This document shows, in pieces, positions 5,683-36,619 of a stretch of DNA of 64,000 nucleotides (its first letter is position 1; every line of letters starts with the position of its first letter). The DNA is taken from contig JBEKBM010000003.1 in assembly GCA_050015395.1 (NCBI GenBank), forward strand, positions 1-64,000, in the 5' to 3' direction. The notes beneath the pieces are model-generated. The model was not told the DNA's origin. It saw nothing but the letters and a program-made list of their open reading frames with translations, and made no database searches. The translations under genes and the position numbers were made by a program. Origin of the DNA: Candidatus Bathyarchaeia archaeon (GTDB lineage: Archaea > Thermoproteota > Bathyarchaeia > Bathyarchaeales > Bathycorpusculaceae).

Positions 5683-5856
5683 TTGGACTTTTAATGTTCC
5701 ATTTGGTGCAGACACCAAAGCATGTAAAAAACAGCTGGCGGTAGTGGAAAACGCACAATAAAAACATTAAGCACAACGAAATTCGCATCACACTTTAAAT
5801 GTTAAAAAGGGAAATCGTTAAATTTTTCCCACAGCAATAATCATTCGGCGAAAAAA

Positions 5857-6267: not shown

Positions 6268-6281
6268 AAAAAAATCGACCT

Positions 6282-17276: not shown

Positions 17277-18800
17277 ATGACAAATAAAACCTCAAAACGT
17301 ATCCGTATTTTTGACACTACCCTAAGAGATGGTGAACAAACACCCGGCGTATCTTTAACCGCCGACGACAAGATTGAGATTGCACGCCAACTAAGCAAGC
17401 TAGGCGTCGACGTTATCGAAGCAGGTTTTCCAAGCTCTTCAGAAGGCGAAAAAAAAGTTGTCAAAGAGATTGCAAAAGCTGGGTTAGAACCAGAAATCTG
17501 CGCTCTGTCCAGAGCAACAAAAGGCGATATTGATGCAGCAATCGATTGTGACGTTGATTTAATTCATGTTTTTATTCCTACGTCGCCTGTGCAAATGAAG
17601 TACGCCGTGAACTTAACGCCTGAACAAGTGCTGTCTTCAACCGTGGAATCTATTGAGTACGTTAAGAAGCATGGTTTCAAATGCGAGTTTTCGCCAATGG
17701 ATGCCACGCGCTCAGAAATGGTCTTCTTAAAACAAGTTTGCCAAGCAGCAGAGAAAGCAGGAATGGACAGCCTAAACGTTCCTGATACCGTGGGCATAAT
17801 GATTCCTAAAACAACCATCAAACTCATTGAGAAACTAAAAAATGTAGTTAACGTTCCCATTAGCACACATTGCCACGACGATTTTGGCTTGGCAGTTGCA
17901 AACTCCTTAGCCGCAGTTGAAGCCGGCGCTACTCAGGTGCACGTTGCTGTCAACGGGTTAGGTGAGCGTGCTGGTAACGCTTCGCTTGAAGAAGTGGTTA
18001 TGGCTTTGCATCTGATTTACAAGTACAAGACAGGCGTGAACACACGGTTATTATACGGCACTTCCAGACTGGTTTCATCGTTGACCGGCATATCTGTGCA
18101 AGCTAACAAGGCAATTGTGGGCGAAAACGCTTTTGCACATGAGTCAGGCATTCATACTCGTGGAGTAACGGAGAAGCCATTAACTTTTGAGCCAATAGAC
18201 CCAGAGTTGGTCGGGCGCACAAGAAAATTAGTTGCAGGGAAACTAGCTGGAACACGCGGCATAAAAGCTGAACTGGAAGAGATAGGCATCCACCCAAGCG
18301 AAGAGCAAATAAAAGAAATTGTCCAACGCGTCAAAGAGTTAGGCGACAAGGGCAAGATGGTGACGGATGCTGATTTATTTGCGTTAACCTCTGCAGTTAT
18401 GGGTGAAGTGATAGGTGAAGAAAAAATTGTTGACTTATGCGACCTAGCCGTCGTAACAGGCATCAAAGTAATTCCGACCGCTTCAGTCCGGCTAGTTTTG
18501 GATGGAAAAGAGTATATTGCGGCAGAAACAGGTGTAGGCCCAGTTGACGCTGTTTTAAAAGCCATCCAAAAACTAACTAATAACCTGGAAAATATACGGC
18601 TCAGCGAATATCGTCTTGAAGCAATCACAGGCGGCTCAAACGCCGTAGCAGAGGTCGTCATTAAAGTAGAGGACGAAAAAGGCAACATCGTTTCAGCACG
18701 TGCAGCCAGAGAAGACATCGTTATGGCAAGCGTTGAAGCAATGATAAACGGTATAAACAAGCTCTTGCTAAAGAATCGTAAGCAGGGAAACAAAAAGTGA
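17277..18800 (+). CDS. leuA: 2-isopropylmalate (or citramalate) synthase with regulatory domain
   Basis: DTTLRDGEQ, HCHDDFG, GERAGN, FAHESGIH, GVGPVDA; cannot exclude CimA. Confidence 0.8.
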   Translation: MTNKTSKRIRIFDTTLRDGEQTPGVSLTADDKIEIARQLSKLGVDVIEAGFPSSSEGEKKVVKEIAKAGLEPEICALSRATKGDIDAAIDCDVDLIHVFIPTSPVQMKYAVNLTPEQVLSSTVESIEYVKKHGFKCEFSPMDATRSEMVFLKQVCQAAEKAGMDSLNVPDTVGIMIPKTTIKLIEKLKNVVNVPISTHCHDDFGLAVANSLAAVEAGATQVHVAVNGLGERAGNASLEEVVMALHLIYKYKTGVNTRLLYGTSRLVSSLTGISVQANKAIVGENAFAHESGIHTRGVTEKPLTFEPIDPELVGRTRKLVAGKLAGTRGIKAELEEIGIHPSEEQIKEIVQRVKELGDKGKMVTDADLFALTSAVMGEVIGEEKIVDLCDLAVVTGIKVIPTASVRLVLDGKEYIAAETGVGPVDAVLKAIQKLTNNLENIRLSEYRLEAITGGSNAVAEVVIKVEDEKGNIVSARAAREDIVMASVEAMINGINKLLLKNRKQGNKK

Positions 18801-19618
18801 AAGTAGCCTTCCAAGGCGAACGGGGCGCTTACAGCGAAAACGCAGTCTTCCAGTTCTTCGGGGCCGACGCACAGGTTAAACCCTGCAAGGACTTCAAGGA
18901 CGTTTTTGACAGCGTATGCACTCAGGAAACCCAGTTCGGCGTCGTACCGGTCGAGAATAGCTTGGAGGGCAGCGTAACACAGAACTACGACCTCTTCCTG
19001 AAGTACAATTTGAAGGTGTGCGGCGAAGTTATCGTGAAAATCGAGCACTGCCTCATCGCAAACCCCGGCACTGCTTTGTCAGATATCAAAGTTGTTTACT
19101 CGCATCCGCAAGCGCTGGGACAGTGCCGAACCTTCTTGGAGGAGTTTGGACGCGAACTCATACCGACATATGACACGGCTGGCAGCGTCAAGATGCTTAA
19201 AGAAAAAGGCTTAAACAACGCTGCGGCGATTGCCAGCGAAAGAGCAGCTAACCTCTACGGCATGCACATCCTCGCCAAAGACATCGCGGACAACCCTGAT
19301 AACTATACACGGTTCTTCGTCCTATCCACAGAGGATTCGCCTGCAACGGGTAAAGACAAAACCAGCATAATCTTCTCAGCCGCCCACAAGCCAGGCTCAC
19401 TCTACCATGCACTAGGTGAGTTCGCCAAAAGAGACATCAACCTCACCAAAATTGAATCCCGACCAACCAAGCAAACGGCGTGGGAATACAACTTCTACTT
19501 GGATTTTGAGGGACACAGGAGCGAGAAACCGTGCGCTGAAGCTCTGAAAGCTCTGGAGAAGTACGCGGTGTTCATTAAGATTTTAGGCTCATATCCTAAA
19601 GCCAAATCGTCACAATAA
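18797..19618 (+). CDS. pheA: Prephenate dehydratase
   Basis: QGERGAYSE, PVENSLEGSV, SHPQALGQC, TRFF, IESRP, ILGSYP. Confidence 0.95.
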   Translation: MKVAFQGERGAYSENAVFQFFGADAQVKPCKDFKDVFDSVCTQETQFGVVPVENSLEGSVTQNYDLFLKYNLKVCGEVIVKIEHCLIANPGTALSDIKVVYSHPQALGQCRTFLEEFGRELIPTYDTAGSVKMLKEKGLNNAAAIASERAANLYGMHILAKDIADNPDNYTRFFVLSTEDSPATGKDKTSIIFSAAHKPGSLYHALGEFAKRDINLTKIESRPTKQTAWEYNFYLDFEGHRSEKPCAEALKALEKYAVFIKILGSYPKAKSSQ

Positions 19619-20751: not shown

Positions 20752-22554
20752 TCAAAGTATTGCTTTATCAAGAATAAAGCGGAATGTTTTACCTTGATAT
20801 ATTTTGCCTAGTTCAATTTTCTCAGTATCTAATACCAGTTGTTTCAGATCAGGTCTAGCCTTCTCAAGAGTTTCAGAAGAAGTAACTTGAGGGTTGATCA
20901 TTTTTTCGATTTCTGGGTAAGGATTGAGTTTGTAATACTCTTTCCATTCGATGTTTTGTAATTGAAGAAGACGATTTTTTAAAGTTTCAAGTCTTTCAAA
21001 GGTCGTCTTAGTACTTTTCAGTTTGTAAGCATATTTATCGCCTAGAAGCACCAATTTTTTATCACGCTCAGAAATCATCGCCTCGACCCAACTCTTTGCA
21101 GCCGTTTCGGAATTAATAATATTAGCTTTATCAGAAAAATTGAAACCGATTTTGTTCCAATCGAAGTGTGCCAGCGTAAGTTTATCTATGTCAAAGGCTT
21201 GGAAAGAGCTGTTAACCCTTTGTAACCATTTGTCAATGAATTCATCATTAGCTATAACCGAATGCAACAGCGCCTTGACCGCAAAAATCGAAAGTTCAAA
21301 AGGACCGATAAATTGTGATTCCAAGTTTTTCCATTCTATGCCAGATTTCTCCAGTGCACTTTCAGCCAGTGTAGAAAACTCGGCATCTATACACCATCTT
21401 GCTAAATAGACCCAACGGTTAGTACTGCCATATTTATCTTCATCAGCTATGCTTTCTTTTTCTGTCTTACAAGCAGTCTTTAGAGTTCCAATATAATGGT
21501 TTCTTAATTGTTGTAAAACCGTGGCAAAGGGGTACGAGAGGCAGATGACTCTATTGGCAATTCTTGATTCGTCGCGCGTTTGAATGTTAATAAATCGAAG
21601 TTTTTTATCGAAAATACTCTGTGCATCCGGAGAAACTAAAATAACATGCAAATCCTCGTTAGCTCTTGCAGCATCCCAGAGCATATGGACTAGATAATTA
21701 TCTCTGAACGAGTACCCTACAACAATCAAAAGCTTAGTGTTATGGTTGAACAACTTTTTCTTGAATAACACCTGCAGATCAGTAAGTGGCTCAACGTACT
21801 CGGATTTTTGAGCTGGATAGATAAGTAACGGTTCGACTGCTTCACCGTATATTAAGCGTAGACCTTCGTTGGAGTTAGAGTGAACGGGGATTTTTACGCA
21901 CTCTTTCGTTTTTTTGTTTTCATACCAAATAACTGAACCATGAAGTTTGTAGTGCTTCACATCAAACGATGCCTTAAAATTCCCTTCGTTCCAGTAAATA
22001 TCAAAACCATCTGTGTATCTTCTGTGGCTTAGATAACTTATTTGTTCAATGCAAGTATCATAATTTGTGGAAAATATTTCGATGGGGGTCTCAAATTTAA
22101 GGAGCTCTTGTAAATACGTTAGGCTGCTTTCTTTTTCTACTATTACCTTAGCTCTGATAAACGCCTCTAATAGATTTTTTAGCTCTAAAAACGATTTTGG
22201 GTCTGAGTCTAAACAAAATTTTTTGTCTGAGTAGAAATCGAGTAGTGGCACCTGTTCTTTATTGATAAGGTCACGTAAAGTAGCTAGCAGTTGTTCCACA
22301 TCAACTTCATACTTGTCCAAATTGCCAGTTTTTCTGTTGAAAGTTTCTCTGACCGCCAAAATATCTAGTAACATCTTGGTTAACGGTTGATGCTGTGCTT
22401 CAATGTATCTAATAAATTCGCTAACAAACCCATACGTGTCAGGGATCCCAGCATCCATTGATGCACCAGCGCCCAAGAGAAATACCACATCTTCTCTGCT
22501 TTCTTCCTGTTCGGTCACAAGTATCAGCTCGTATGTTACAGATATTATTGACAA
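20752..22554 (-). CDS. SIR2-like (SIR2_2) NADase domain protein with uncharacterised C-terminus
   Basis: FLLGAGAS..GIP, STNYD, KLHGS, VGYSFRD. Confidence 0.88.
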   Translation of the reverse strand: MSIISVTYELILVTEQEESREDVVFLLGAGASMDAGIPDTYGFVSEFIRYIEAQHQPLTKMLLDILAVRETFNRKTGNLDKYEVDVEQLLATLRDLINKEQVPLLDFYSDKKFCLDSDPKSFLELKNLLEAFIRAKVIVEKESSLTYLQELLKFETPIEIFSTNYDTCIEQISYLSHRRYTDGFDIYWNEGNFKASFDVKHYKLHGSVIWYENKKTKECVKIPVHSNSNEGLRLIYGEAVEPLLIYPAQKSEYVEPLTDLQVLFKKKLFNHNTKLLIVVGYSFRDNYLVHMLWDAARANEDLHVILVSPDAQSIFDKKLRFINIQTRDESRIANRVICLSYPFATVLQQLRNHYIGTLKTACKTEKESIADEDKYGSTNRWVYLARWCIDAEFSTLAESALEKSGIEWKNLESQFIGPFELSIFAVKALLHSVIANDEFIDKWLQRVNSSFQAFDIDKLTLAHFDWNKIGFNFSDKANIINSETAAKSWVEAMISERDKKLVLLGDKYAYKLKSTKTTFERLETLKNRLLQLQNIEWKEYYKLNPYPEIEKMINPQVTSSETLEKARPDLKQLVLDTEKIELGKIYQGKTFRFILDKAIL

Positions 22555-24138: not shown

Positions 24139-25554
24139 GTGTTGCCAATGCCGCCATTCTTGCCCTTATTTGAGAGAAACATATTTCTAGACTTCATTGA
24201 TCCTGCCAAAGTTGAGCAAGATTCTGATGTTATAAAAGATTACTTTGAAGGTGGCTGTGACGTTAATGCAAAGGTATTGTTGGAGGTCGAAAACCAGAAA
24301 TGGAAATTCTACTTAGACAATCTGATGGTTATCCGTCGAAATCAGCTTTTCGGCACCTCTACACCAATACCTGATGAAGATAAGAAAGTAGATCAGCTTG
24401 CAAGCGAGGGAAAATTACTAGCTCAAGAGCTGAAGCAAATACGAAATGTGAGACCCATATCCACTCGAACATTGGCGACATGGCTGAATAAGGAAGCGAG
24501 AAGAACTGAATACCTCGAAGCTAAATCTATCCCGTATCCAAATGATGAAGAACATCAACAACACCTTTCGTGGATTGTCTCGAATACATTGGCAGAATTG
24601 TACTTTCCAGAGGGATTCTTTACAAGCGGAATTTTCAAGTTGGAATCTGGGTTCTCAACTTTTCCTTACGATTTTTTGGAGTGCTTTCTAGGTCAGCGTC
24701 AACTTTACATTTGGTATCTAATTTACACCCAGAGAGGTCCTGAACATTTCCTAAAAAATCTAGAAGGGGTCATTATTCGAAGATACATAGTTACACGGAC
24801 TTTCTCTATGAATGCCTATAGCCTTCTAAACGTACTAATGTTCAACGGTAATGACCAAAATAGATGCAATCGTTTTTTTACCAGGCGCATGGAGAAAAAC
24901 ATCAGCGTTGAGGCGACTTATTGGTGTGGACTTACCAATAGTATTGGGGCAAGGAATGAAGAAGATTCCTTCAAGAACTTTTTCATGTCAAATCCATCTT
25001 CAAACTGCAATTTTAGAGACCCATTTCAACCAGCTCGTGATTCAGAACCAGGACTAATCGAGCAAGCGATTTTTAACCATGTTGTTGGAAACTATTGCGC
25101 CTCAGTGAATTTACTTTTTCCGTTAATAGAGGGAGTCATTTGGGACATCTCAGTCGCAGAACATCTTCTGAATGGAGGAATATACACAACATCTTCAAAT
25201 TTGAGCACTAGGGATGTCAAAAGCCGTCAACTTCTTGATGATAGCGGAACACCCATTCCAATTCGTCATGGCGCACCCAGTTTAAAAGAGCTTCTGGAAA
25301 ATACTAGAATGAAAAATATCTTCCATACACAATTCCTAAAGTTCCTATGCGGGGAAGTATTTCCTGATGAGAGAAACCCTATTCTTCACGGTGTCCTGCT
25401 TGATTATAACTCTCCTTCTCTATCGTCTCGTCTTCTTTTAGTCGTTGAATATTTGCACTCAATAATCAAGAACAAACAATACTTATATCCTGTGCAACTT
25501 GACCCGACTGGTTATTGGACACCAGAAAAAAGTGGCGACCCAAGATTCTTTTGA
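24139..25554 (+). CDS. Large protein with C-terminal HEPN-like (DUF4209-like) domain
   Basis: LLFPLIEGVI helix followed by the RNPILHG (Rx4H) motif. Confidence 0.65.
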   Translation: MLPMPPFLPLFERNIFLDFIDPAKVEQDSDVIKDYFEGGCDVNAKVLLEVENQKWKFYLDNLMVIRRNQLFGTSTPIPDEDKKVDQLASEGKLLAQELKQIRNVRPISTRTLATWLNKEARRTEYLEAKSIPYPNDEEHQQHLSWIVSNTLAELYFPEGFFTSGIFKLESGFSTFPYDFLECFLGQRQLYIWYLIYTQRGPEHFLKNLEGVIIRRYIVTRTFSMNAYSLLNVLMFNGNDQNRCNRFFTRRMEKNISVEATYWCGLTNSIGARNEEDSFKNFFMSNPSSNCNFRDPFQPARDSEPGLIEQAIFNHVVGNYCASVNLLFPLIEGVIWDISVAEHLLNGGIYTTSSNLSTRDVKSRQLLDDSGTPIPIRHGAPSLKELLENTRMKNIFHTQFLKFLCGEVFPDERNPILHGVLLDYNSPSLSSRLLLVVEYLHSIIKNKQYLYPVQLDPTGYWTPEKSGDPRFF

Positions 25555-25561: not shown

Positions 25562-26437
25562 TTATTTTTCGGTGGCTTCGAGCATTCGGTACATGGCTTC
25601 GTAGGATTTAGCAAAGTCTGGGTCAGCTTCAGTCAATTTAGCCTTTAAGCGCTCCATTCGCTTCACAATTGCGTCTGCATCCTTGTTTTTGATTAAGCTC
25701 AACCATTCATTTGCTTTAGCCATAAACAATTCTTCGATTTCGCCCAGCTCAGGCAAGTTCGTTTGTAGACTTGCATAAAGGTCAGGTGTTTCAAGAGCTG
25801 TTGCCTCTGCCAAAGTGAATAGCATCCGATATGTAGTGCCCGCGACTTCTTTTGTTTCTGGGAAATCTTTTTGTTCCAGGAGCGTTTCGCAAGCAACTAA
25901 GCCCAGAAAATGTGGTAGACCAAGAACAACCGATATAAGTTCATCATGCTTTTTCGGAGACATGACAAAGACATGCGCTTCTTCTTGTTCTAGCCACTTC
26001 TTGAATTGTTCTGCGAACTTTTCCTCTTCAGGGCTGGTTGGAGTGAGAATGTATGCTTTGTGTTTGACGCCGCTGCTTCCTGGCCCAAAAACTGGATGAG
26101 TCCCCAGAACTAAGGCGCCTTTTATGTTCTCATGCATGGTTTTGACGGGGGTTTCTTTGATTGAGCATATGTCCATGACGACTTGTCCTTGGTGAAGTGC
26201 CGGGCTAATAGTTTTTACTACTTCTTCAAAAGCGTTTATGGATACGCAGATTAGAACTTGGTCTGCATCAGTAACGGCTTCCTTGAAATCGGTGGTTAAC
26301 TTGATTTGTAATTCTTTTTTTAGATTGGCTATTTTTTCTTTTTTCCTGTCTGCCAGTGTCACAGAGTAGCCTTTTGAATTAAAAAATTTAGCGAACCAAA
26401 CACCCATTTTTCCCGCGCCAATTATGGCAATTTTCAT
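25562..26437 (-). CDS. tyrA: Prephenate dehydrogenase
   Basis: IIGAGKMG, DICSIK, GTHPVFGP, HD....V.GLPH. Confidence 0.93.
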   Translation of the reverse strand: MKIAIIGAGKMGVWFAKFFNSKGYSVTLADRKKEKIANLKKELQIKLTTDFKEAVTDADQVLICVSINAFEEVVKTISPALHQGQVVMDICSIKETPVKTMHENIKGALVLGTHPVFGPGSSGVKHKAYILTPTSPEEEKFAEQFKKWLEQEEAHVFVMSPKKHDELISVVLGLPHFLGLVACETLLEQKDFPETKEVAGTTYRMLFTLAEATALETPDLYASLQTNLPELGEIEELFMAKANEWLSLIKNKDADAIVKRMERLKAKLTEADPDFAKSYEAMYRMLEATEK

Positions 26438-27558
26438 TCAAGCGCCTCGCTAATCTTGTCTAAGGCAGTTTTTATTTCGTCTCTGGGTGCAGTTAAAGAG
26501 ATTCTAAAGTGTTCTTTGTAATCGCCGAACGCTGTGCCTGGAGCTACTGCTACGCCTTTATCCAGCAAGTCTAAGGTGAATTTTTCGGAGTTTAAGCCTG
26601 GATGCTTGGGGAAAACGTAGAATGGCGCTTCAGGTTTTGTGAATGAGAGCCCTGCCTTGGCTAAGGTTTTGGTTGCCATTTTTGCTCTTTCTTGGTATTC
26701 TTCTTTGATTTTTGTGGCGAGTTGTTTTTGCATTTCCAGCGCTTTTAGGGCTGCTTCTTGAATGAATACTGGAACGTTGTTGATGGTGATTTGGTTGAGT
26801 TTAGTTATGTTATCGACGAGCTGTTTGTTCGCTATGATGTAGCCGATTCGCCAGCCTGTCATGGTGAATGTTTTGGAGAAGCCGTTGGATAAAATATGGG
26901 TGTGGTTGCCGTCATACTCTAGGATACTTTTTGTTTTAACGAAACTGATTGTTCCATAAACCTCATCGGATAGTATTGTGACGCCTTTCTTGTTGGCTAT
27001 TTCCACTATGCCGTCTAGTGTTTCAGCATCCATGACTTTGCTTGTAGGATTATTAGGATTGTTGAGTATTATCATGCGGGTGTTCTTGTCAATCATGGCT
27101 TCAAGCTTGTCTAAATCTACTTTCCAGCCGTCTTCCATCTCTGTCCTTAACAGTTTAGTTTGAGCACCAAGGCTCTTAGCGATTAAATCGTAAGCTGTCC
27201 AGTAAGGCGTCGGGATAATTACGTTTCCTCCTGCCTTCATCATGAGATACATGGTGGCGAATATGCCCCATTTTGAACCAGGCGTAATAACCACGTTTTC
27301 AGCTTTAACTCCATGGAGTTCAGCGAGCCTTTCTCTAAGGTTGGTCTCGCCGTAAGAGGAAGAATATTTTGTTTTGCCCGCCTTCATCGCTGCGTATGCC
27401 GCTTCAATTATCTCGTTAGGCGTAGCTAAGTCTGGGTCGCCTAGGTTTAAGCGTATTATCTTTTTTCCTTCATTTTCGAGCCTTATGGCTTTCTCGTTTA
27501 TTTCATAGAGCACGGCGTTAACTCTCCGTTGAGAGGTCTTTCTACTCTTGAACAGCAC
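26434..27558 (-). CDS. Class I/II PLP aminotransferase (aromatic/aspartate)
   Basis: NNPNNPT, SDEVY, GFSKTFTMTGWRIG; true start may be a GTG slightly downstream. Confidence 0.9.
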   Translation of the reverse strand: MLFKSRKTSQRRVNAVLYEINEKAIRLENEGKKIIRLNLGDPDLATPNEIIEAAYAAMKAGKTKYSSSYGETNLRERLAELHGVKAENVVITPGSKWGIFATMYLMMKAGGNVIIPTPYWTAYDLIAKSLGAQTKLLRTEMEDGWKVDLDKLEAMIDKNTRMIILNNPNNPTSKVMDAETLDGIVEIANKKGVTILSDEVYGTISFVKTKSILEYDGNHTHILSNGFSKTFTMTGWRIGYIIANKQLVDNITKLNQITINNVPVFIQEAALKALEMQKQLATKIKEEYQERAKMATKTLAKAGLSFTKPEAPFYVFPKHPGLNSEKFTLDLLDKGVAVAPGTAFGDYKEHFRISLTAPRDEIKTALDKISEALE

Positions 27559-27802
27559 TGCACATATTAACTATTTCGCGGTAAACCGCTTCAACTTGCA
27601 GTGGATCAAGATGAAATTCAACCGCTTTTTCTTTAACACGTTTGTAGATTTCATTTTCTCTGGAAGTGTCCCTTATTTTCATGTCTTTCTTTTTCTTAGC
27701 TAAGCCAATAGCCATGCATATTTTGGCTCTTTCGTTTAGGGCATCTAGGATTTGTTCGTCAACTTCGTCGACCTTTTTTCTGAGCTGTTGGATTTCATCC
27801 AT
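27542..27802 (-). CDS. Chorismate mutase (AroQ type)
   Basis: LRKKVDEVDEQI..LNER....IG..K, RD..RE. Confidence 0.9.
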   Translation of the reverse strand: MDEIQQLRKKVDEVDEQILDALNERAKICMAIGLAKKKKDMKIRDTSRENEIYKRVKEKAVEFHLDPLQVEAVYREIVNMCSAVQE

Positions 27803-28911
27803 TATTTCTGTCTCTCCAAAACTTTCGGTATAAAGCCAGCGCGAATCATATGGTCAGCTAAGGTTATGGCGACCGCAGATTCTATAGCGGGCACGGCTTT
27901 TGGGACGACACAGGGGTCATGCCTACCCTTAATGCTAAGATTCGTGTCTTCCATCGTAGACAGATTAATGGTCTTCTGTTCTTTGCCGATGGAAGGTGTC
28001 GGTTTTATTGCTACTCGCATCATGATTGGCATGCCATTGGATATTCCGCCCAAAATTCCGCCCATATTATCCGTTGAAGTTGCAACCCTTCCGCTCTGCA
28101 TAATATAGGGGTCGTTGCTTTCTGAGCCCTTTAACTCTGCAACTCTAAACCCCAAGCCGAACTCAACCCCTTTCACAGCGGGAATATCAAACAACGCTTT
28201 TGCTAAATCGGCATCAAGCGAATCAAACAGTGGCTCTCCAACTCCTACTGGAACATTTAGGGCAATGCATTCAACTATTCCGCCAAGACTATCGCCTTCT
28301 TTTCTCGCAGTGACTATGGCTTCCTCTATTCTTTCTGCACAGGCTAAGTCTGGACACCGGGTAGCCGCTGTGTACCTGTTCTTGCGGATTTCCTCAGCAG
28401 TAAACTTTTTATCACTTTTAACTTTGCCAACTGCTCGGGTGTAAGCTAAAATGTCAACGTCGAATCTGCTCAGTAGTTTTTTGGCTATTGCTCCAGCCAT
28501 GATGAGTGCGACTGTGAGTCTGCCTGAGAAGCGTCCGCCGCCTCGGTAATCGTTAAAGCCACCATACTTCACGCGGGCGGGATAATCGGCGTGTCCTGGT
28601 CTTGGCAGGTCCTTGATTGCCTCGTAATCGCTTGAGTCAACCTCCTTATTCTCAACCATCAAAGCGATTGGAGCACCAGTAGTGAAACCGTTAAAAACCC
28701 CTGAAAGAATTTTGGCAACGTCTTTTTCGATTCTTCCAGAAACTATTTTCGGCTCTGCTGGAATGCGCCTATCCAGTTCCACTTGGATGTCTGCTTCAGA
28801 AAGAGGCAATCCCGCAGGGCAACCGTCCACGACTGCGCCGACGTGTGTGCCGTGGCTTTCGCCGAAAGTGGTTACTGTTAATTCTTTACCTATCGAATTT
28901 CCCGCCAACAA
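27802..28911 (-). CDS. aroC: Chorismate synthase
   Basis: TFGESHG, PRPGHAD, GGGRFSGR, GRHDPC. Confidence 0.96.
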   Translation of the reverse strand: MLAGNSIGKELTVTTFGESHGTHVGAVVDGCPAGLPLSEADIQVELDRRIPAEPKIVSGRIEKDVAKILSGVFNGFTTGAPIALMVENKEVDSSDYEAIKDLPRPGHADYPARVKYGGFNDYRGGGRFSGRLTVALIMAGAIAKKLLSRFDVDILAYTRAVGKVKSDKKFTAEEIRKNRYTAATRCPDLACAERIEEAIVTARKEGDSLGGIVECIALNVPVGVGEPLFDSLDADLAKALFDIPAVKGVEFGLGFRVAELKGSESNDPYIMQSGRVATSTDNMGGILGGISNGMPIMMRVAIKPTPSIGKEQKTINLSTMEDTNLSIKGRHDPCVVPKAVPAIESAVAITLADHMIRAGFIPKVLERQK

Positions 28912-30190
28912 TTTCAGCTCCTATCTGTCTTAGATGAGTGAAGAACTGCGGATAAGACTTTCTAACGCACTCTGCATTTTGAACAGTGGTTTGCCCTTCT
29001 GCGCCTAGGGCTGCAACCGAGCAAGCCATCGCGATACGGTGATCATTATGCGGGTTAATCACTGCACCATTCAACGCACAGGGACCTCTCACAATTAGAC
29101 TGCTGGAATCCATATCTATTTGCGCACCCATCTTTCTTAGCTCAACATAAAGCGATGACAACCTATCTGACTCTTTTAGCCTGAGCCTTTGTGCACCGCT
29201 TATTCGAGAAGTTCCTTTCGCATAACATGCAAGCGTAGCACAAACTGGAACAAGATCAGGGATATTTTTTGCGTCGATGTTCAGAGGTTCAAGCAAACTA
29301 CCTGTTCCATTTATTTCAACACTGTCCTCACATACTTTCCCATTGACACCCATTTGCTTGAGGATGCCCAAAATCGCTTTATCGCCTTGAATGCTCTCAT
29401 AATCAAGATTGCTGATTTTTACTTTCGAGTTGGTTATGGCTGCGGCAGCTAGGAGAAAGGCAGCTGAAGAGAAGTCGCCGGGCACTTTGCAGTCAGAGGG
29501 CTTGTACGTTTGATTGGACGGAATATCTATGCGCTCAAAGTTACCTTGAACATAAACCTTGACTCCGTGTTTGGCGATGACATCTTGGGTAATTTTAACG
29601 TAATCCACAGACTCGAGCGGTGTTGTAAGAATGATTTCAGTATCCACCTTTGCCAACGGGCAAGCAAACATCAACCCAGATATGAACTGGGAACTAACAT
29701 CACCAGGAATAGACGTTTTGCCTCCAAGAATACCACCGCCTTCAACTAAGACGGCGTCTTTGTCGCCGAGTTTTTGCGAATGTGCTTTGGCACCAAGGTC
29801 CTTGAGGCTTTGAATCAAAGGCTCTATAGGTCTGCGTTCAAGAGAACCTCTGAAAACTAGTATTGATGGGTCAGGTGCAAGGGCAGCTACAGGTATCATG
29901 AAACGTAATGTAGCTCCAGATTCACCGCAGTCAATAGGCTCGTTGGCACTTTTAAGCGGCATTACGCCAGTAACTGTCCAGCAACCTTCCGCCTGCTTTA
30001 CTTTTGCGCCCAAAGCCATGATGGCTCGCAGGGTTGCTTCTGTATCCTCAGATAAAAGAGGATTAGATATTTTAGAAGTGCCATTAGACAGGGCATCGGC
30101 TATGAGCATTCGCTGTGTGTAAGACTTTGATGGAGGAGCACAAACCTTCCCACTTAAACGCTCAGTGTTTTTAACGATTACATCTGCCAT
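28886..30190 (-). CDS. aroA: EPSP synthase
   Basis: PPSKSYTQR, CGESGATLRF, SSQFISG, LRLKESDR, HNDHRIAM. Confidence 0.96.
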   Translation of the reverse strand: MADVIVKNTERLSGKVCAPPSKSYTQRMLIADALSNGTSKISNPLLSEDTEATLRAIMALGAKVKQAEGCWTVTGVMPLKSANEPIDCGESGATLRFMIPVAALAPDPSILVFRGSLERRPIEPLIQSLKDLGAKAHSQKLGDKDAVLVEGGGILGGKTSIPGDVSSQFISGLMFACPLAKVDTEIILTTPLESVDYVKITQDVIAKHGVKVYVQGNFERIDIPSNQTYKPSDCKVPGDFSSAAFLLAAAAITNSKVKISNLDYESIQGDKAILGILKQMGVNGKVCEDSVEINGTGSLLEPLNIDAKNIPDLVPVCATLACYAKGTSRISGAQRLRLKESDRLSSLYVELRKMGAQIDMDSSSLIVRGPCALNGAVINPHNDHRIAMACSVAALGAEGQTTVQNAECVRKSYPQFFTHLRQIGAEIVGGKFDR

Positions 30191-30193
30191 TGG

Positions 30194-31063
30194 CTAAAGC
30201 ACCTTAGCTTTCTCGCGGTTCAAGCGCGCCTCTAAGACTTTGCCATCATACTTCTGTAAAGCGGCTTTCACTGAATCAATCTTGTTCTTGGGCGTAACTG
30301 CTGTTACTGCGGGTCCTTTGCCGCATAATCCAGCTGCTACTGCTCCAGCAGCTAGCGCATCAATCGCAATTGAAGGGTTGTATCCTGAGGCTGAGGAGTA
30401 AATTAAGCCGTTAAGCGTCAATGCCTCCCAAACCTTTCCCTCCAAAGCTTCCTTGTACGCAACTTCAACGAGCGGTTTGACCGTTTGCAACCTGCACACG
30501 TTAGAGTCGGCTGTGTACGCTTTTTCAGGCGGTACATGGAACAGCACCGTTAAGTCTCCAGCCAACGGTAAATGCTTAACTATTTCTCGGCTCAAGTTGT
30601 CAGTAATTACTATGCCGCCGAAGTAGGAAGCGCAAGCGTCATCGAAAGCGCCTGTTACAGTCACTTTTGCGTCGAAAGCAGCGTCTACGCCCAACTTTAC
30701 GAGTTCCAAGTCGTCAAGCGTTTTGTCTAACGCCGCTGTGGCTGCTAGGGCTACTGCGTTTGCGGCTGCACTGCTGCTTTTTAATCCTTTGGCGATTGGA
30801 ATGTTTGACCAAGTTTTTACTTTGGCTCCAAAACTATTATCCAAACTGAACAGCTGGAGAACCCTCATCACGGTTTTTTCCATTAAGGCGGTATTTTCTT
30901 TGGGATCAGAGGTTATTTCTGCTTTGATAACATGAGGTTCATCCGTTAATTTGACTTCTGCTTTAGTCCACAAATCAACTCCGAATGCCGCACCTTTGCC
31001 GAATGCCATTGCGTTAACGATTGTTGCAGCCCCATGAGCTATAGCCGTAGCTTTTCCAGTCAA
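30194..31063 (-). CDS. aroK: Archaeal shikimate kinase (GHMP family)
   Basis: IPIAKGLKSSSAA, VTGAFDDA. Confidence 0.92.
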   Translation of the reverse strand: MTGKATAIAHGAATIVNAMAFGKGAAFGVDLWTKAEVKLTDEPHVIKAEITSDPKENTALMEKTVMRVLQLFSLDNSFGAKVKTWSNIPIAKGLKSSSAAANAVALAATAALDKTLDDLELVKLGVDAAFDAKVTVTGAFDDACASYFGGIVITDNLSREIVKHLPLAGDLTVLFHVPPEKAYTADSNVCRLQTVKPLVEVAYKEALEGKVWEALTLNGLIYSSASGYNPSIAIDALAAGAVAAGLCGKGPAVTAVTPKNKIDSVKAALQKYDGKVLEARLNREKAKVL

Positions 31064-31067
31064 CTTT

Positions 31068-31925
31068 CTACACCTTTAACAAGTGGTTAAGCGCTGCCTT
31101 CCTCATAACTTCAACCGGCGCCTTGCCACTGGTCCAGATTTCAAAGGATGCAGCACCTTGATAAATTAACATTTCAACCCCACTCACTACTTTGGCGCCC
31201 ACCGCTTTAGCGTCCTTCGCTAACTTGGTTTCAACTGGACTGTACACTATGTCCATCACTGCCAAATCAGCTTTCAACCATTCAGGCGCGACTGGAGTTT
31301 GGTTAGCGTTTGGTTTCATTCCGACTGAGGTAGCGTTAATCAGCACATCGGAATCAACAAGGTTATCTTTGATTGTTCCGGGCGTAAGCGCATTTGCGAT
31401 GACTTTTTTGTTGAACGCTTTTTTCAAAAGGTTAGTTAGTTCCGTTGCTGGTTTAGCTGTTCGATTCAGAATTACTAGTTCATCGGCTTCTTGCGCAAGA
31501 GTGTATGCTATGGCTCTTGCGGCGCCGCCTGCTCCAAGCAACAGCACCTTTTTGCCTCTTGGCTCAACGCCGTTCTCTCTTAGAGCTTTTAGGGCTCCGA
31601 TGCCGTCAGTGTTAAAGCCAAAGAGTCTTCCAGCCTTGTTAAGGATAGTATTTACTGAGCCTATGGTTTTGGAAGCTTGGTCAATTTCATCTAAGTAGTT
31701 GATAACTGTGCTTTTGTGTGGCATGGTTACGTTTAACCCGTGAATGGTCAAGGCTCGCATGCCGCTTATGGCGTTTCCGACTTCAGCTGGTTTTACTTTG
31801 AACGCTAAAAACACGTAGTCCAGTTTCAAAGCCTCAAACGCTGCATTATGCATGATTGGGCTCAGCGTGTGCTCTATTGGGTCACCGATTACTCCGCAAA
31901 CACGTGTTTTTCCTGAAATAACCAT
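31068..31925 (-). CDS. aroE: Shikimate dehydrogenase
   Basis: HTLSP.MHN, NVTMPHK, NTDG, GAGGAARA. Confidence 0.95.
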   Translation of the reverse strand: MVISGKTRVCGVIGDPIEHTLSPIMHNAAFEALKLDYVFLAFKVKPAEVGNAISGMRALTIHGLNVTMPHKSTVINYLDEIDQASKTIGSVNTILNKAGRLFGFNTDGIGALKALRENGVEPRGKKVLLLGAGGAARAIAYTLAQEADELVILNRTAKPATELTNLLKKAFNKKVIANALTPGTIKDNLVDSDVLINATSVGMKPNANQTPVAPEWLKADLAVMDIVYSPVETKLAKDAKAVGAKVVSGVEMLIYQGAASFEIWTSGKAPVEVMRKAALNHLLKV

Positions 31926-31930
31926 CTTAT

Positions 31931-32611
31931 TTATGCTCCTAAGAGGTTGTAAATACCCCTCATTTCTTGAACAGTCATTTGCCCTGACGCAGTTTCGTTG
32001 CCCTGCTCAAGCGAAGCGAATGTGAAGAATGCACCGAACATTGGTGAGAGAAGCCTGGAAACCTTGCCTTGTTCACCCATGCAGAAACAGACAAGTTTAG
32101 CCTTGCTTGACATGGAAGAAACAAAATTCAGCACCGCCAGATTGTCTTCGATTTTCTTTGCAGCTGTCACTATTTTGCAGACGATGGCTCCGCCGGCAAT
32201 TTCTTTTTCCAGAACCGTTTCCATTTCACAAACACTTAATGCGCCGTCGAATTTGTGGTAGGAAACGATTGGTTTAGCGCTCAATAGCTTGAGTTTTTCG
32301 ATTGTTTCTTTATGTTTTGGGCTTGACAGGTTAACGTCAACATATTCGAAGCCGTTCTTGGCAGCGTTTAGTAATGTTTGTTGCCGCTCGGTTTCTGTTC
32401 CAGCATAAAAGCCTTTTTCAATCAAGAGCTTGTTTGTTGCGATTAGCGGAACTTTGGTGCTTTTAACAAGTTCTGATAGGTTTCTGGACGCTTCAAAGCA
32501 GTCTAGCCTAACTTCTATGAGGTTTGCTTGGGCTTTTTCTGCCCTCTCGATGAGACTTAACGCTTCAAGATTATTTTTTGGGAGAATCGAGACGCAGATT
32601 CTCGCTGTCAC
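31931..32611 (-). CDS. aroD: Type I 3-dehydroquinate dehydratase
   Basis: IEVRLD, IVSYH, KIV, FCMGEQGKVSR, ASGQ. Confidence 0.9.
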   Translation of the reverse strand: MTARICVSILPKNNLEALSLIERAEKAQANLIEVRLDCFEASRNLSELVKSTKVPLIATNKLLIEKGFYAGTETERQQTLLNAAKNGFEYVDVNLSSPKHKETIEKLKLLSAKPIVSYHKFDGALSVCEMETVLEKEIAGGAIVCKIVTAAKKIEDNLAVLNFVSSMSSKAKLVCFCMGEQGKVSRLLSPMFGAFFTFASLEQGNETASGQMTVQEMRGIYNLLGA

Positions 32612-33648
32612 TTTTCTATCACCGTTTCTTCAGGCACGGATACGCCGAAGTGTCGGCCTCCTTTCGCGGCTATGTGCACTATGACTTCATCGTTTGGTTT
32701 TAGTTCTGTTACTGGTTTTGAAGCTTTCGGTGTCACCACTCGTATTGTTTCGGCGTTTTGAAGTATAATCTTGATTTTTGTGTCGCCGACTTGGGCTTCG
32801 ATTAGGAGTAGAGGTCGAAACTCAATTTTTGACCGTCCCACATTTGTTATTCGAGCTTTTCCTTCCCTATTAATGATTAAAACTTCATCGCCCGCTTTCA
32901 ACTCGGACAGATACCGAGTACCCTGCAGAGAAGTTAACGTGTAGTTTGACGCTGCCCCGGCGTTTACCCGGAAAGGCCTAGAATTTACGTAGGGGTTTTC
33001 ATTTACTTCAGCCTCTACAAGAAAGAAGCCTGCGGATTGGCATCCGACCAGCATTCCTTCGCCCGGAACCATTAAGTCAACAGTGTCCACGCAGACTCTG
33101 GCTCCACTGCTAATCGGTTTAGTTGATACGATTTTAGCTACAGTTAAAGTTATTTTGGGCATTTGCTCTTTAACGATTTTGGTGGCTTTTGAAAGCTCGT
33201 TGGGGTTTGAGGTTTTTAGCAAAACACCGTCGGTTCCTAGTTCTAGGGCTTCAAGAACCAGTTTCGCGTCTTCTGCGGTGGTGACTTCGGCGATTAGTTT
33301 GCTTTTGCCTCTTGCCTTCGCAATCAAATTTTCAAGCGGAATTACCCGCCAATCAAGACAGTTAATGATAATGTAATCAACCCCGAGTTCTGCCGCTTCG
33401 ACGGCTTTATTTTCGTCTTCTTTTCCCTTTATGCTGATTTTGATGGCGGTTTTTTTACCCTCGTTTTTGTGTTGGGCTATTTTTTTCTCGTTTAGTTCAG
33501 TGAGGAAGGTTATGTTTAATTTGCCAGAGCGGTTACCCGCCTGGGTATCTTCAATGATTACGTCAGCGTTTTCATGGGCGAGGCTGAGTAAAGTTTCTTT
33601 TTCTTGCGGTGAAGCAGCTTGGTCTATTTCTACCCATAGTTCCTTCAA
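32608..33648 (-). CDS. aroB': 3-dehydroquinate synthase II (DKFP pathway)
   Basis: WRVIPLENL, RVCVDT, RPFRVNAGA, LQNAETIR, GRHFG. Confidence 0.93.
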   Translation of the reverse strand: MKELWVEIDQAASPQEKETLLSLAHENADVIIEDTQAGNRSGKLNITFLTELNEKKIAQHKNEGKKTAIKISIKGKEDENKAVEAAELGVDYIIINCLDWRVIPLENLIAKARGKSKLIAEVTTAEDAKLVLEALELGTDGVLLKTSNPNELSKATKIVKEQMPKITLTVAKIVSTKPISSGARVCVDTVDLMVPGEGMLVGCQSAGFFLVEAEVNENPYVNSRPFRVNAGAASNYTLTSLQGTRYLSELKAGDEVLIINREGKARITNVGRSKIEFRPLLLIEAQVGDTKIKIILQNAETIRVVTPKASKPVTELKPNDEVIVHIAAKGGRHFGVSVPEETVIEK

Positions 33649-34436
33649 TGGTGCTCACCGAGAATTTTAAGCGCTTGCTCTACGCTAACGCCGTCATGAA
33701 CGATTGCTGATAGCGCTTTAACTATTAAAGTTGGGTTCTCGTTTTGGAACACGTTTCGTCCAATGGAGAGTCCTGCAGCGCCAGCTTTTATTGAGTCATG
33801 TGTGGTTTGGAGGATTTCTTGGGATGTTTTGCATTTTGGTCCTCCAGCAATTACCACTGGAACTGGGCAGCTTTCGACGACTGTTTTGAAGGTGTCTATG
33901 TTGCCTGTGAAGTTTGCTTTAATTATGTCTGCGCCTAGTTCAGCGCCAATTCTTGCAGCGTGGGCTACCACGTCAGGCGCATGTTCGTTTTGTATTTTTG
34001 GTCCACGAGCGTACATCATTGCAAGCAGCGGCATACCGTATATGTCGCATTCGTCGGATACTTTGCCTAGGTTACTTAGCATTTTGTCCTCGTCTTGTGC
34101 ACCAACGTTCACGTGTACGGACACTGCATCTGCGCCTAAGCGTATGGCTTCTTGAACAGTGCACACTTGGACTTTACCGTTTATGTTCGGGCTAAGGTTT
34201 GACATGCCTGATAACTGCACTATTAAACCTGCGTTTCCAGCGTCAACGTATTTGGCTATGCCTTTGTGGACTAGTACGGCGTCGACTCCACCTTTGAGGA
34301 GTTGATTGATTATTTGCTGCATGTCGATTATTCCTTGGATTGGGCCGATTGTTACGCCGTGATCCATGGGTACGATTACTGTGCGGTTGTCTTGCCGCAT
34401 GATTCTTTTTAATCGTCGTGTTTTTCCTTGGTTCAT
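33645..34436 (-). CDS. aroA': 2-amino-3,7-dideoxy-D-threo-hept-6-ulosonate synthase
   Basis: VPMDHG, GADAVSVHVNVG, MMYARG, AELGADIIK; adjacent to aroB'. Confidence 0.9.
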   Translation of the reverse strand: MNQGKTRRLKRIMRQDNRTVIVPMDHGVTIGPIQGIIDMQQIINQLLKGGVDAVLVHKGIAKYVDAGNAGLIVQLSGMSNLSPNINGKVQVCTVQEAIRLGADAVSVHVNVGAQDEDKMLSNLGKVSDECDIYGMPLLAMMYARGPKIQNEHAPDVVAHAARIGAELGADIIKANFTGNIDTFKTVVESCPVPVVIAGGPKCKTSQEILQTTHDSIKAGAAGLSIGRNVFQNENPTLIVKALSAIVHDGVSVEQALKILGEHH

Positions 34437-34452: not shown

Positions 34453-35700
34453 TTATTTGGAAGTCCTTAATGAGTTTTTAATTAGTTTCAAGGCTTTTTC
34501 ACGTTCATTCCAATCTACAAAGAGCAGAATGCTTGATGTTATGGTTAGTATGCCTGAAATGTTTATCCCGTTTAATCTGAGGTCTTCGCTGATTTTTCCT
34601 ATTATGCCGTGGGTCTCTTCTAAGCCGACACCGCTTGTTTTTATGAAGACTAGGTCTTTTTTGACCGCCATTGCTATGGTTTCTTTATTGTTCTTTGTGA
34701 TATCATGAATATCATTAAAGAGCACGTCCAAGTTTTTTTCTTGAGAAGCGTAAAGTATAATTGAGTTTGTGTTCATTGACATGCCGAGAAGCAGGGAGTG
34801 CTGTTTGGTTTTTTCCACCATTTCTTGGATGATTTGGGGGTTTGCGGAGATGCCGTTTCCGATTACTGTTATTTCAGCGACTGGAAAGGGATGTGCTATT
34901 TCCGCGTCCAGTTCACTTGCTAATGCGCCTGTGATTACTGTGCCTTCTTTAGTTAAGTTGCCGTGTGCGTGGTTGATTACTCGGACGTTGATGTTTTTTG
35001 GTTTGTACTTTAAGGCTTTGCTGTGAATAAATTTGGCGCCTGAATCAGCTAAGCCTACTAGGGTGTTAACGTCGATTTCTCTTAGGCGTTCTGGGTTGGA
35101 GACAGTCTTGGGATCACCTGACATTATGCCATCCGCGTCGGTGACTAAGACGATTTCGTCAGCGTTTAATGCTTCAGCTAGGACAAACGCGGTTGTGTCG
35201 CTGCCGCCTCTTCCGAGAGTGGTGATTTTGCCGTCTTTAGTTTTGCCAAGGAACCCAGCGACTACTGGTATTATACCCTTTTCCATAAGGGGCAGTATGC
35301 ATTCACGAATATTTTTTTCGCAATCTTTCAGGATTGGATTGGCGTTTTGGAATGCTGAGTCAGTTATTATTGGCCAGTTGTTGTCTATTGGGTCAAAGTA
35401 GCAGGATTCTGCACCGTTAGTTTTTAGCGCAGCAGCGAATATTCTTATGCTGGTTCGCTCACCCATCGAGAGGATATCATCCAAGTCTTTTTTCTCTAAT
35501 TTTCCATTGGAAGCGTTTTTCGCTGTCGTCATAAGGACATCGGTTGTTTTGCCCATAGCGGAAACTACAACGGCGACCTGTGTGCCTTTTTTGGCTTCGT
35601 TCACGACGGCAACAACCGCTTTTAAGAGCCTCTCGTGATCCGCTAGGCTAGAACCACCAAATTTAACAACAATTCTTTCGTTAGAGGTATTTTTTTCCAT
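34453..35700 (-). CDS. lysC: Aspartate kinase (first gene of the aromatic operon)
   Basis: VVKFGGSS, SAMGKTTD, TTLGRGGSDTTA, C-terminal ACT-like region. Confidence 0.9.
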   Translation of the reverse strand: MEKNTSNERIVVKFGGSSLADHERLLKAVVAVVNEAKKGTQVAVVVSAMGKTTDVLMTTAKNASNGKLEKKDLDDILSMGERTSIRIFAAALKTNGAESCYFDPIDNNWPIITDSAFQNANPILKDCEKNIRECILPLMEKGIIPVVAGFLGKTKDGKITTLGRGGSDTTAFVLAEALNADEIVLVTDADGIMSGDPKTVSNPERLREIDVNTLVGLADSGAKFIHSKALKYKPKNINVRVINHAHGNLTKEGTVITGALASELDAEIAHPFPVAEITVIGNGISANPQIIQEMVEKTKQHSLLLGMSMNTNSIILYASQEKNLDVLFNDIHDITKNNKETIAMAVKKDLVFIKTSGVGLEETHGIIGKISEDLRLNGINISGILTITSSILLFVDWNEREKALKLIKNSLRTSK

Positions 35701-35718
35701 CTTTTACACCCATGCTTT

Positions 35719-35756
35719 GCCCAGAACTTTGCTTAAAAAATTTCTTAGTTCTGGGC
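35719..35756 (-). promoter_or_regulatory. Perfect 10-bp hairpin with a U6-containing loop between the leader ORF and aspartokinase (candidate attenuator)
   Basis: mRNA sense: GCCCAGAACT-AAGAAATTTTTTAAGCAA-AGTTCTGGGC, starting directly after the leader stop codon. Confidence 0.7.
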
Positions 35757-35840
35757 TTAAGGAAAATAATGATAAAAGTAGTAGTCGAAGCTAAGGAGTT
35801 GTGATGCACTTGTTTCTATCTTGCTTTTGCAATTAGACAT
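35757..35840 (-). CDS. Putative Phe/Tyr-rich leader peptide (MSNCKSKIETSASQLLSFDYYFYHYFP)
   Basis: 7 of the last 10 codons are Phe/Tyr; TATA-like CTTATATT about 40 nt upstream; precedes the Phe/Tyr biosynthesis operon. Confidence 0.75.
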   Translation of the reverse strand: MSNCKSKIETSASQLLSFDYYFYHYFP

Positions 35841-36619
35841 TGTAGCTTCGAACCCTTGCTCAATCAGTCATCATCCAGAAAATATAAGCGTTTCGGAAAC
35901 AGCAGTAGATCCGCAAGTGCTTTAGCAAAAAGAGCCTAAAGTTTTCATTGGTTTTGCTTAAAGTAACTTTGCTATTTGGGTCTTCTTCTATGTCATGGTT
36001 TTCAATAGGGTAAAATATACGTGTGTAGGCTACTACCTACCGGGGGGTCAAATGCATATACGTTTTGTAGATACAATTTGACGATACAGTTTCAAAGAAC
36101 AGGCGGGAGAGCATATGCCTAAAGCGTTTAAGGCATTCAAGTGCGAGGCATTGCAAAGTTAGTGCTCTTAGCCATTGGAGGAACCTGCAATGTTAGTGAC
36201 AGGCGCTCAGGTGAATACTCCACAACATCGTTTAGCAGTTTTCAAGCTTTACTAAAGCTCACCTGCGGAACTACTGAACAGGATGACAGTTTAACTGATA
36301 AGTGCCTAACTATGACATGCCAGTTTCTAATTAAATAGCATACAAGCCTAAGGGGGGTCTACTTTTAGCCTAGGTGTTTGAGTAGCAAAAAGACTACCCT
36401 ATTTGGTCAGTCGACTTGTAAAACAAGCCTTTGTATGCTGTTATGCTTTCTTTTGCTTTTCTTCAGCTAAGCATCCACAATAAAAAATGTAGTTTCAAGA
36501 AACAAAAAAATAACAAAATCGCTCCGCTAAGAGCAAATTACGAGCCAGCAGTTCATTGCGACGGGGTATAGTCTTTATCAATTTGACCGTGCTATAAAGA
36601 ACCTAAAGAAGGTATTCGA

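Follow-up and report, generated by a model that had tools for sequence, protein, structure and literature searches.

Introduction

That leader peptides can control amino-acid operons is textbook knowledge for bacteria, where the mechanism needs translation to be coupled to the fate of the same mRNA. In the bacterial attenuators (Escherichia coli pheL-pheA, pheM-pheST, trpL and hisL, and the Rfam family Phe_leader), a short leader open reading frame (ORF) carries a run of cognate codons and is followed after its stop by a stable hairpin. Here we describe a candidate leader of this layout in an archaeon, on the minus strand of a 64,000-nucleotide (nt) stretch of contig JBEKBM010000003.1 from Candidatus Bathyarchaeia archaeon (source genome 2.59 Mb, GC 42.6%); this whole stretch is called the window in what follows. 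The element lies between the promoter and the first gene, an aspartokinase, of an aromatic amino-acid (aro) operon, and it consists of a short upstream ORF (uORF) that ends in a run of Phe (F) and Tyr (Y) codons and of a hairpin, termed H2, that abuts the stop codon of this uORF. As in the bacterial systems, a ribosome stalling on hungry codons is presumed to give the signal.

In other respects the archaeal leader departs from the bacterial attenuators. It stands behind a promoter of the archaeal kind, with a transcription factor B recognition element (BRE) and a TATA element, its codon run mixes Phe and Tyr with an occasional Trp, and its first downstream gene is an aspartokinase that feeds the archaeal 6-deoxy-5-ketofructose 1-phosphate (DKFP) route. 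A U-tail past the hairpin, an antiterminator alternative and an Rfam leader match, as detailed below, are likewise not among its general features. Among bacterial leaders, those of ermC and cat/cmlA are translational attenuators. For a translational output, the closest mechanistic precedent by analogy would be the mycobacterial polycysteine small ORFs (sORFs), in which ribosomes stalled in a tract of cognate codons are reported to free a sequestered ribosome-binding site (RBS) (10.1101/834739); stalling there is caused by scarcity of the cognate amino acid, as we propose for the archaeal leader. The differences from the mycobacterial, ermC and cat attenuators are the archaeal domain, an occlusion of the RBS that is only predicted, and a Shine-Dalgarno (SD) motif that lies outside H2 in most clades.

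Full-text literature searches returned only bacterial leader-peptide work and no archaeal case. In the available part of a 2021 review on archaeal transcription-translation coupling the word stem 'attenuat' is absent, and a 2025 perspective (PMC13681488) counts attenuation among the effects that coupling has in bacteria, with coupling in archaea figuring there as a hypothesis. If true, our proposal would represent the first instance among Archaea of amino-acid supply being sensed translationally and in cis, and it would concern a lineage, the Bathyarchaeia, that is very abundant in soil and sediment and uncultured. As a conserved, sequence-defined leader, the element would also be a portable test object for asking whether archaeal ribosomes regulate genes in cis, one that could discriminate between initiation, termination at oligo-U or by FttA, and mRNA decay as the step under control, and it singles out a small ORF lacking annotation, together with a dedicated aspartokinase, as the point of regulated entry into the archaeal DKFP route.

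Results and discussion

Anatomy of the leader in the window

Read along the minus strand, the leader opens with a putative archaeal-type promoter (35879..35896) that combines a BRE-like CCGAAA with a TATA-like CTTATATTTT. The complete BRE/TATA-like element, CCGAAACGCTTATATTTT (35896-35879), contains the TATA-like sequence CTTATATT at 35888-35881 and is conserved at 90% or more in the 29 sequences of the window's genus that cover the site in alignment A1, with variable sequence on both flanks. Given the archaeal TATA-to-start spacing of about 25 nt, transcription would be expected to start at 35856..35858, leaving a 5' untranslated region (UTR) of about 17 nt. The segment TCGAAGCTA (35843..35851), which lies between an SD-like AGGG(T) motif and the uORF ATG, forms the 5' strand of a helix, H1, that is part of the RNAalifold consensus described below.

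The uORF itself (35757..35840) comprises 27 codons and a TAA stop, with its ATG at 35840 and its stop at 35759-35757, and encodes MSNCKSKIETSASQLLSFDYYFYHYFP. Seven of the final ten residues, FDYYFYHYFP, are Phe or Tyr, and the aromatic codon run (F18, Y20, Y21, F22, Y23, Y25 and F26) extends over 35763..35789. H2 (35719..35756) follows the stop without a gap as a perfect 10-bp stem, with its 5' arm GCCCAGAACT at 35756-35747, its 3' arm AGTTCTGGGC at 35728-35719 and an 18-nt loop (35746-35729) that holds a T6 tract at 35740-35735. Directly 3' of H2 stands AAAGCA and no U-tract, and the SD-like GGGTG of the aspartokinase gene (35707..35711) is found 7 nt past H2 and 6 nt ahead of the ATG at 35700. 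Folding energies set both structures apart from shuffled sequence, at -16.7 kcal/mol for H2 (z = -4.67) and -40.7 kcal/mol for the whole leader (z = -3.28), such that 0 of 200 shuffles were as stable in either case. The features that a first-pass annotation of this DNA had listed were all confirmed, and every position that it gave proved correct, when the minus strand was read again.

Conservation of the aromatic uORF

Aromatic-tailed uORFs were found ahead of the orthologous aspartokinase in every one of 30 loci of the same genus (aspartokinase identity 73-100%) and in all of another 11 loci, which represent four families and include f7, f5 and f12 at 50-61% aspartokinase identity; in this second set L038 is truncated by the end of its contig, and L039 has a short, weak leader with 4 aromatic residues. 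The same tail was carried by all 64 named Bathyarchaeia records whose sequence extends upstream of the gene (a 65th record begins within it), by 15 of 15 additional loci from two genera, and by four loci reached through the ADH synthase gene (L122, L126, L128 and L139). After pooling and de-duplication these amount to 106 Bathyarchaeia loci, all with an aromatic tail. A start codon is present in 105 of the uORFs, and the set comprises 89 distinct leaders that encode 86 distinct peptides; because the sampled genomes are related and form only a sample, such conservation counts are not independent trials.

Beyond this set, a clear aromatic tail with an abutting hairpin was present in 10 of 20 loci from other families of the class and in weak form in 1 of the 20; roughly half of these families share the layout. 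A further sample of 20 loci comprised 16 outside the class and 4 inside it. Outside the class, the leader was clear in 7 of 16 loci (f57, 3/3; f61, 2/2; genus g130 of f46, 2/2) and weak in 4 of 16 (three of genus g147 of f46 and one of f65), and for one of the 16 the retrieved stretch missed the relevant region. Two of the four loci inside the class fit the leader layout, L197 with 8 aromatic residues and L196 with 5 and a hairpin of -29.4 kcal/mol, and L194 and L195 of family f17 showed no abutting hairpin. Searching the taxonomic order for the ADH synthase family mostly retrieved, among high-scoring matches, a second aldolase paralogue without aspartokinase or leader, and in genome G070 (locus L123) an ADH synthase of the aro type has neither an aspartokinase ORF nor an aromatic uORF ahead of it.

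Two side observations concern leaders that depart from this pattern. At L105 the uORF lacks the usual stop and extends four codons into H2 (...YFPQAQN), which may be an assembly error or a decayed leader. Where families lack the aromatic leader, a different conserved small frame, starting MGDxLFGDGVY..., stands about 100 nt upstream of the orthologous aspartokinase; it was seen in six loci of family f26 (L157-L160, L162 and L163) and recurs more weakly in L165, L167 and L174. This frame is conserved as nucleotides too, and the aspartokinase gene may thus have a second type of leader that is unrelated to the first.

Evidence that the uORF is translated

Comparison of the 89 distinct leaders revealed a reading frame that is kept open, such that stops are absent from the uORF frame in 89 of 89 leaders, as against 59 stops (in 45 leaders) in the +1 frame and 164 (in 83 leaders) in the +2 frame. 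Length changes respect the same frame, with the spacing from the ATG to a conserved AGCTTCG being 27, 42, 45 or 48 nt, always a multiple of three, in 80 of 80 leaders, and the uORF ATG is invariant in alignment A1. Phe, Tyr and Trp together make up 63% of the last 12 codons versus 7.6% of the rest of the peptide. The two main residues are exchanged for each other at most tail positions, so that the RNA is altered and the class of codon is preserved, and both codons of each are in use (TAT 250, TAC 124, TTT 182, TTC 113). An open frame, indels in threes and Phe/Tyr swaps together provide evidence against a purely non-coding element.

The uORFs are mainly 26-28 codons long with a variable N-terminal half, and the number of distinct peptides is high because the peptide outside the tail is free to vary. 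The last aromatic codon is the penultimate sense codon in 76 of 89 leaders and the last one in 8. Judged from these sequence patterns, the uORF is very probably a translated leader peptide that is otherwise unconstrained. Trp codons are absent from the leader in the window, as the first-pass annotation had pointed out; this does not extend to all relatives, with 7 of the 89 distinct orthologous leaders carrying a Trp codon in the tail.

Within the source genome the element is singular. A scan of the 2.59 Mb returned 30,275 ATG-started sORFs of 8-60 codons, and the aro uORF was the sole one outside long ORFs that combined at least 7 Phe/Tyr codons per 10-codon window with an ORF of at least 120 amino acids (aa) no more than 300 nt downstream. 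Stops abutting a stem of at least 8 bp ahead of a long ORF were found for 11 sORFs genome-wide, and an amino-acid-biased tail in the aro uORF only. Since, moreover, no Trp- or His-rich uORF was seen upstream of trpE (contig C41) or hisG (C13) in the same genome, the leader appears to be a device of the aromatic operon and no general habit of this genome.

Two supported RNA helices, H1 and H2

The RNAalifold consensus of 30 genus sequences contains two separate and mutually compatible helices. H1 joins the 5' UTR segment before the ATG (35851-35843) to the codons S17-F18-D19 (its 3' strand, TAGCTTCGA, 35785..35793, was placed by RNAalifold and pair counts), and H2 is the hairpin at the uORF stop. 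Across 83 distinct family sequences 96.0% of the H1 cells and 96.7% of the H2 cells are paired, and shifting the partner by one column lowers pairing to 44-46%. Five pairs have changes on both sides, in 28 cells, and this covariation score was reached by 0 of 500 shuffles, with the proviso that the shuffling control ignores relatedness and that its counts are not probabilities. In H2 the compensatory changes affect two pairs and, additionally, one at the weak closing pair, with double changes arising in at least three lineages as read from the alignment (the L092-L097 group, L028, and L077/L078), and the H1 core pairs have one-sided, G-U-compatible changes only. Where only one side changes, the result is almost always a G-U pair (40 cells for H1, 52 for H2), and such pairs work only in the sense RNA. 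Comparison of orthologous leaders for conserved Phe/Tyr-rich uORFs and for stem covariation was clearly positive, and the label of a candidate archaeal leader-peptide attenuator, under which the element had first been annotated, therefore holds and is reinforced.

Stronger evidence comes from the comparison between families, in which H2 keeps its position at the uORF stop while its stem sequence is replaced. The stems are unrelated across clades, being GGAGAAACCG/CGGTTTCTCC in L128, purine/pyrimidine-rich in f5 and GGGGACC... in f57/f61, and in genus g16 H2 has 8+5 bp, takes in the last two letters of the stop codon and has A-U in place of a G-C pair in 3 of 15 sequences. Among 121 distinct leaders, H2 began between 6 nt inside the uORF end and 1 nt past the stop in 115 (59 of them with H2 directly behind the stop), the last aromatic codon started 7-10 nt ahead of the first H2 pair in 90, and an SD-like motif followed 0-8 nt past H2 in 103, with none found by simple pattern in 12. 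In L188 and L189, from another class, the 3' arm of H2 itself holds the SD and AUG. By the reach known for bacterial ribosomes, one on the last aromatic codon would abut H2, and one at the stop codon would open its GC-rich base.

A separate arrangement was seen in the f57/f61 leaders L178-L181 and L184, from other classes of the phylum, all five of which end ...GGUCCC UAA GGGGACC.... The sequence suggests that GGUCCC, the last two sense codons, could pair with the H2 5' arm GGGGACC across the stop, which would make it a candidate for a mutually exclusive structure. This alternative pairing is absent from the genus of the window, and a CUGGGC copy in the 5' UTR of g16 offers a possible alternative pairing in that clade only.

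A probable Phe/Tyr sensor with a possible translational output

These features make it quite likely that the element is a sensor of Phe/Tyr supply that works by ribosome stalling, whatever its output. We further regard as reasonably likely that it is an archaeal-native leader-peptide sensor, ancient and common to many Bathyarchaeia families and to other classes of the phylum, which does without the bacterial pair of terminator and antiterminator; H2 at the uORF stop would then, with a similarly fair degree of likelihood, couple the position of the ribosome on the Phe/Tyr codons to initiation or to FttA-type termination.

As to the output, we tentatively favor translational attenuation by occlusion of the RBS, a choice guided by folding models and held, for sensor and output taken together, at well below even confidence. 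Under this proposal the uORF would be translated and its last ten or so codons, mostly Phe/Tyr, would sense charged tRNA-Phe and tRNA-Tyr. H2, reaching from the uORF stop to just before the aspartokinase SD, would clamp the U-rich aromatic codons beside the purine-rich RBS, such that the two could pair and aspartokinase initiation would fall. When Phe/Tyr are scarce, a ribosome dwelling on the aromatic run would cover that strand, the RBS would open and the aspartokinase would be translated, and the packed downstream genes would presumably follow through translational coupling and translation-dependent transcript elongation. H1, which ties the 5' UTR to the first aromatic codons, may limit or time translation of the uORF.

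Translational attenuation is preferred because of the universal features of the leader (the aromatic run up to the stop, H2 at the stop, and the SD after H2) together with two predictions of structure. In the minimum-energy fold of the leader in the window, codons 21-25 are paired with the aspartokinase SD, spacer and AUG, and H2 tops one long irregular stem, and in a local model of the 89 leaders the probability that the RBS is unpaired rises from 0.39 to 0.69 once the tail is masked by a ribosome. Modeled geometry, with the ribosome reach given above, also suggests that the footprint of a stalled ribosome would cover the predicted occluding strand.

Several results weigh against this reading. 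Composition-matched shuffled tails occlude the RBS as well as natural ones do (unpaired probability 0.392 for natural tails versus 0.381, with the natural value being lower in 40 of 89 leaders only), and tail-RBS duplexes are no stronger than those formed with 433 other RBSs of the genome (median percentile 0.58), so that the predicted occlusion reflects base composition and no specific complementarity between tail and RBS. In a whole-leader model the unpaired probability of the RBS scarcely changes, being 0.43 in the free leader and 0.43, 0.49 and 0.48 with a ribosome stalled on the first aromatic codon, on the last one and at the stop, and a ribosome held at the start of the aromatic run would leave the greater part of the tail uncovered. 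Across the 30 genus sequences the tail:RBS helix is 73% paired, its covariation was reached by 187 of 500 shuffles, and it is absent from the RNAalifold consensus. Finally, the distribution of the leader has gaps, with no aromatic leader in 9 of 20 loci from other families of the class (f26 and f35) and in 4 of 4 loci of f51 outside the class.

Four peat RNA runs contained contigs that are 90-97% like the aspartokinase and ADH synthase genes, and one 96-nt contig of depth 3 (run X2) matches 35720-35795, that is H2 and the aromatic tail, before it diverges. Because metatranscriptome contigs carry no end or strand information, and RNA libraries can hold DNA, this contig shows only that the leader sequence of a relative is present within an RNA library.

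Alternative outputs and readings

The same sensor could instead act on transcription, with the ribosome setting whether H2 forms or whether U-rich RNA is exposed, and the output being premature termination or cleavage at oligo-U or by FttA/aCPSF1, in what would be an archaeal counterpart of bacterial transcription attenuation. The layout resembles that of bacterial leader-peptide attenuators, termination in archaea is stated to rely on oligo(dT) tracts and on FttA, a factor with a preference for U-rich RNA (PMC13681488), and a ribosome stalled over the U-rich aromatic codons would hide them, an effect of the right sign. Of 121 leaders, 59 have a T-run of at least 5 within H2, among them the leader in the window with its T6; they come mostly from the genus of the window, in which the run is often paired with an A-run in the loop. 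The other 62 leaders lack such a run, GC-rich clades have no U-runs, and a T-run of at least 4 within 12 nt past H2 occurs in only 3 of the 121, so that the oligo-U output proposed in the first-pass annotation is not supported as a general feature. A further difficulty is one of order, since a loop T-run is transcribed before H2 forms and H2 would therefore be unable to modulate intrinsic termination there. Nor did RNAalifold and pair counts on the family alignments reveal a conserved antiterminator pairing to either arm of H2. The pairing of GCCCA with UGGGU that had been suggested as an alternative fold is not conserved, with U preceding GGG in only 15 of 30 genus sequences (alignment A1) and unrelated stems standing in other clades. 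On balance we consider termination or cleavage rather unlikely and less probable than RBS occlusion, though it stands, like the control of mRNA decay described below, as a serious rival.

One narrower candidate was rejected, namely a hairpin with a U-tail terminator as a general feature, which is not conserved, being present in just 3 of 121 leaders. Rfam gave no match at gathering score to a leader family in the window, and none at E <= 10 within 35600-36000. Nor was any sign seen of a switch by frameshifting. As the bacterial terminator/antiterminator family is defined, the leader falls outside it, but it probably shares that family's sensing principle.

A third output of the same sensor would be mRNA stability, with a stalled ribosome and H1/H2 blocking 5'-to-3' exonucleolytic decay under Phe/Tyr limitation, and induced mRNA stability of the ermC type is known in bacteria. 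The uORF is close to the 5' end, given the expected 5' UTR of about 17 nt, the H1 stem would form very near that end, and the sign would be right without terminator or sequestration of the SD. We nonetheless find this unlikely, as it leaves the placement of the SD 0-8 nt past H2 unexplained.

Sensing could also be by the peptide, in the manner of TnaC and the fungal arginine attenuator peptide. A nascent aromatic arrest peptide would detect free Phe/Tyr in the ribosomal tunnel, stall at the stop codon when these are plentiful, hold H2 open and lower expression. It would fit this logic that an S-F-[D/G/E]-Y motif and the aromatic pattern are kept as amino acids across families whose nucleotides differ, that 36 of 89 leaders end in Pro-stop, and that H2 abuts the stop, where a ribosome would melt its GC base by the geometry described above. 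The peptides are, however, only 20-29 residues long with a freely varying N-terminal half, Phe and Tyr interchange at most positions, and the residue at the end is not fixed (P 36, N 24, T 7, Y 6, S 4, R 3, and 9 across six others), and a cognate codon run is explained more simply by the sensing of hungry codons; an arrest peptide is accordingly quite unlikely.

It is likewise improbable that the conserved sequence represents sites for a regulatory protein, either a DNA operator or a TRAP-like RNA-binding protein on UAY/UUU triplets or on H2, with an open frame that is incidental. H1, H2 and several codons (TTTTAT, TATTTT) are indeed kept at synonymous positions within the genus, and the TTCGAA core of H1 is palindromic. 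Incidental openness sits poorly with a frame that is open in all 89 leaders when stops are frequent in the other frames and indels come in threes, and the G-U cells (40 in H1 and 52 in H2) would turn into A-C mismatches if the opposite strand or a DNA palindrome were the functional form; H2, besides, has its sequence wholly replaced in other families with its position kept. That the uORF product is a small aromatic-rich protein with its own function and no part in operon regulation is very improbable, for although the conservation of the uORF and its apparent translation would fit such a protein, half of the peptide varies freely, the amino-acid bias fits the products of the pathway, and the uORF is always placed between promoter and operon with a hairpin at its stop.

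Operon and genome context

The gene behind the leader (34453..35700, minus strand) encodes a 415-aa aspartate kinase (NCBIfam NF005159, 387 bits, above the cut-off), which appears to be a pathway-dedicated paralogue, with two more aspartokinase-like genes elsewhere in the genome being 38% and 32% identical to it. The other 10 genes of the 11-gene operon (25562..34436, minus strand) were assigned by NCBIfam, and the chorismate mutase by Pfam CM_2. They follow in the order ADH (ADTH) synthase, 3-dehydroquinate synthase II, aroD, aroE, an archaeal GHMP-type shikimate kinase, aroA, aroC, chorismate mutase (27542-27802), aminotransferase and prephenate dehydrogenase, with all genes overlapping or no more than 16 nt apart. 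By these assignments the operon downstream of the leader encodes the DKFP/shikimate/Tyr pathway, that is, biosynthesis of the cognate amino acids. Its route is presumably the archaeal DKFP route, which consumes aspartate semialdehyde, and this would explain why a dedicated aspartokinase heads the operon.

The Phe branch is arranged differently. pheA (prephenate dehydratase, 18797-19618, plus strand) lies 6 kb from the operon on the opposite strand, starts with GTG and overlaps the last codons of a 507-aa gene (both within window positions 17277-19618) that, judged from sequence only, resembles an isopropylmalate or citramalate synthase. No leader of its own was found ahead of pheA, and its position outside the operon, overlapping another gene, implies that control of the Phe branch is separate from the aro leader.

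Just past the end of the operon are a 471-aa ORF (24139-25554, plus strand), for which Pfam gave no match, and the gene for a 600-aa protein with a SIR2-like domain (20752-22554, minus strand; Pfam SIR2_2, E 1.5e-9). Elsewhere in the genome, trpE (contig C41, match 5062-6366, minus strand) has no in-frame ATG, GTG or TTG near its beginning, and an ATG with a run of four G stands one base out of frame, an oddity that may reflect faulty sequencing of the homopolymer and have no biological cause. Just 5' of the aro promoter, a stretch of about 75-110 nt (about 35895-36005, minus strand) ending ...GCGGATCTACTGCTG is repeated at two sites of the source genome (G000), C6:48011-48085 and C17:137-188, with 81% and 88% identity over 74 and 48 nt. 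The C6 copy also stands just 5' of a gene, and it is possible that the repeat is a small mobile element, a small RNA gene or a shared upstream element.

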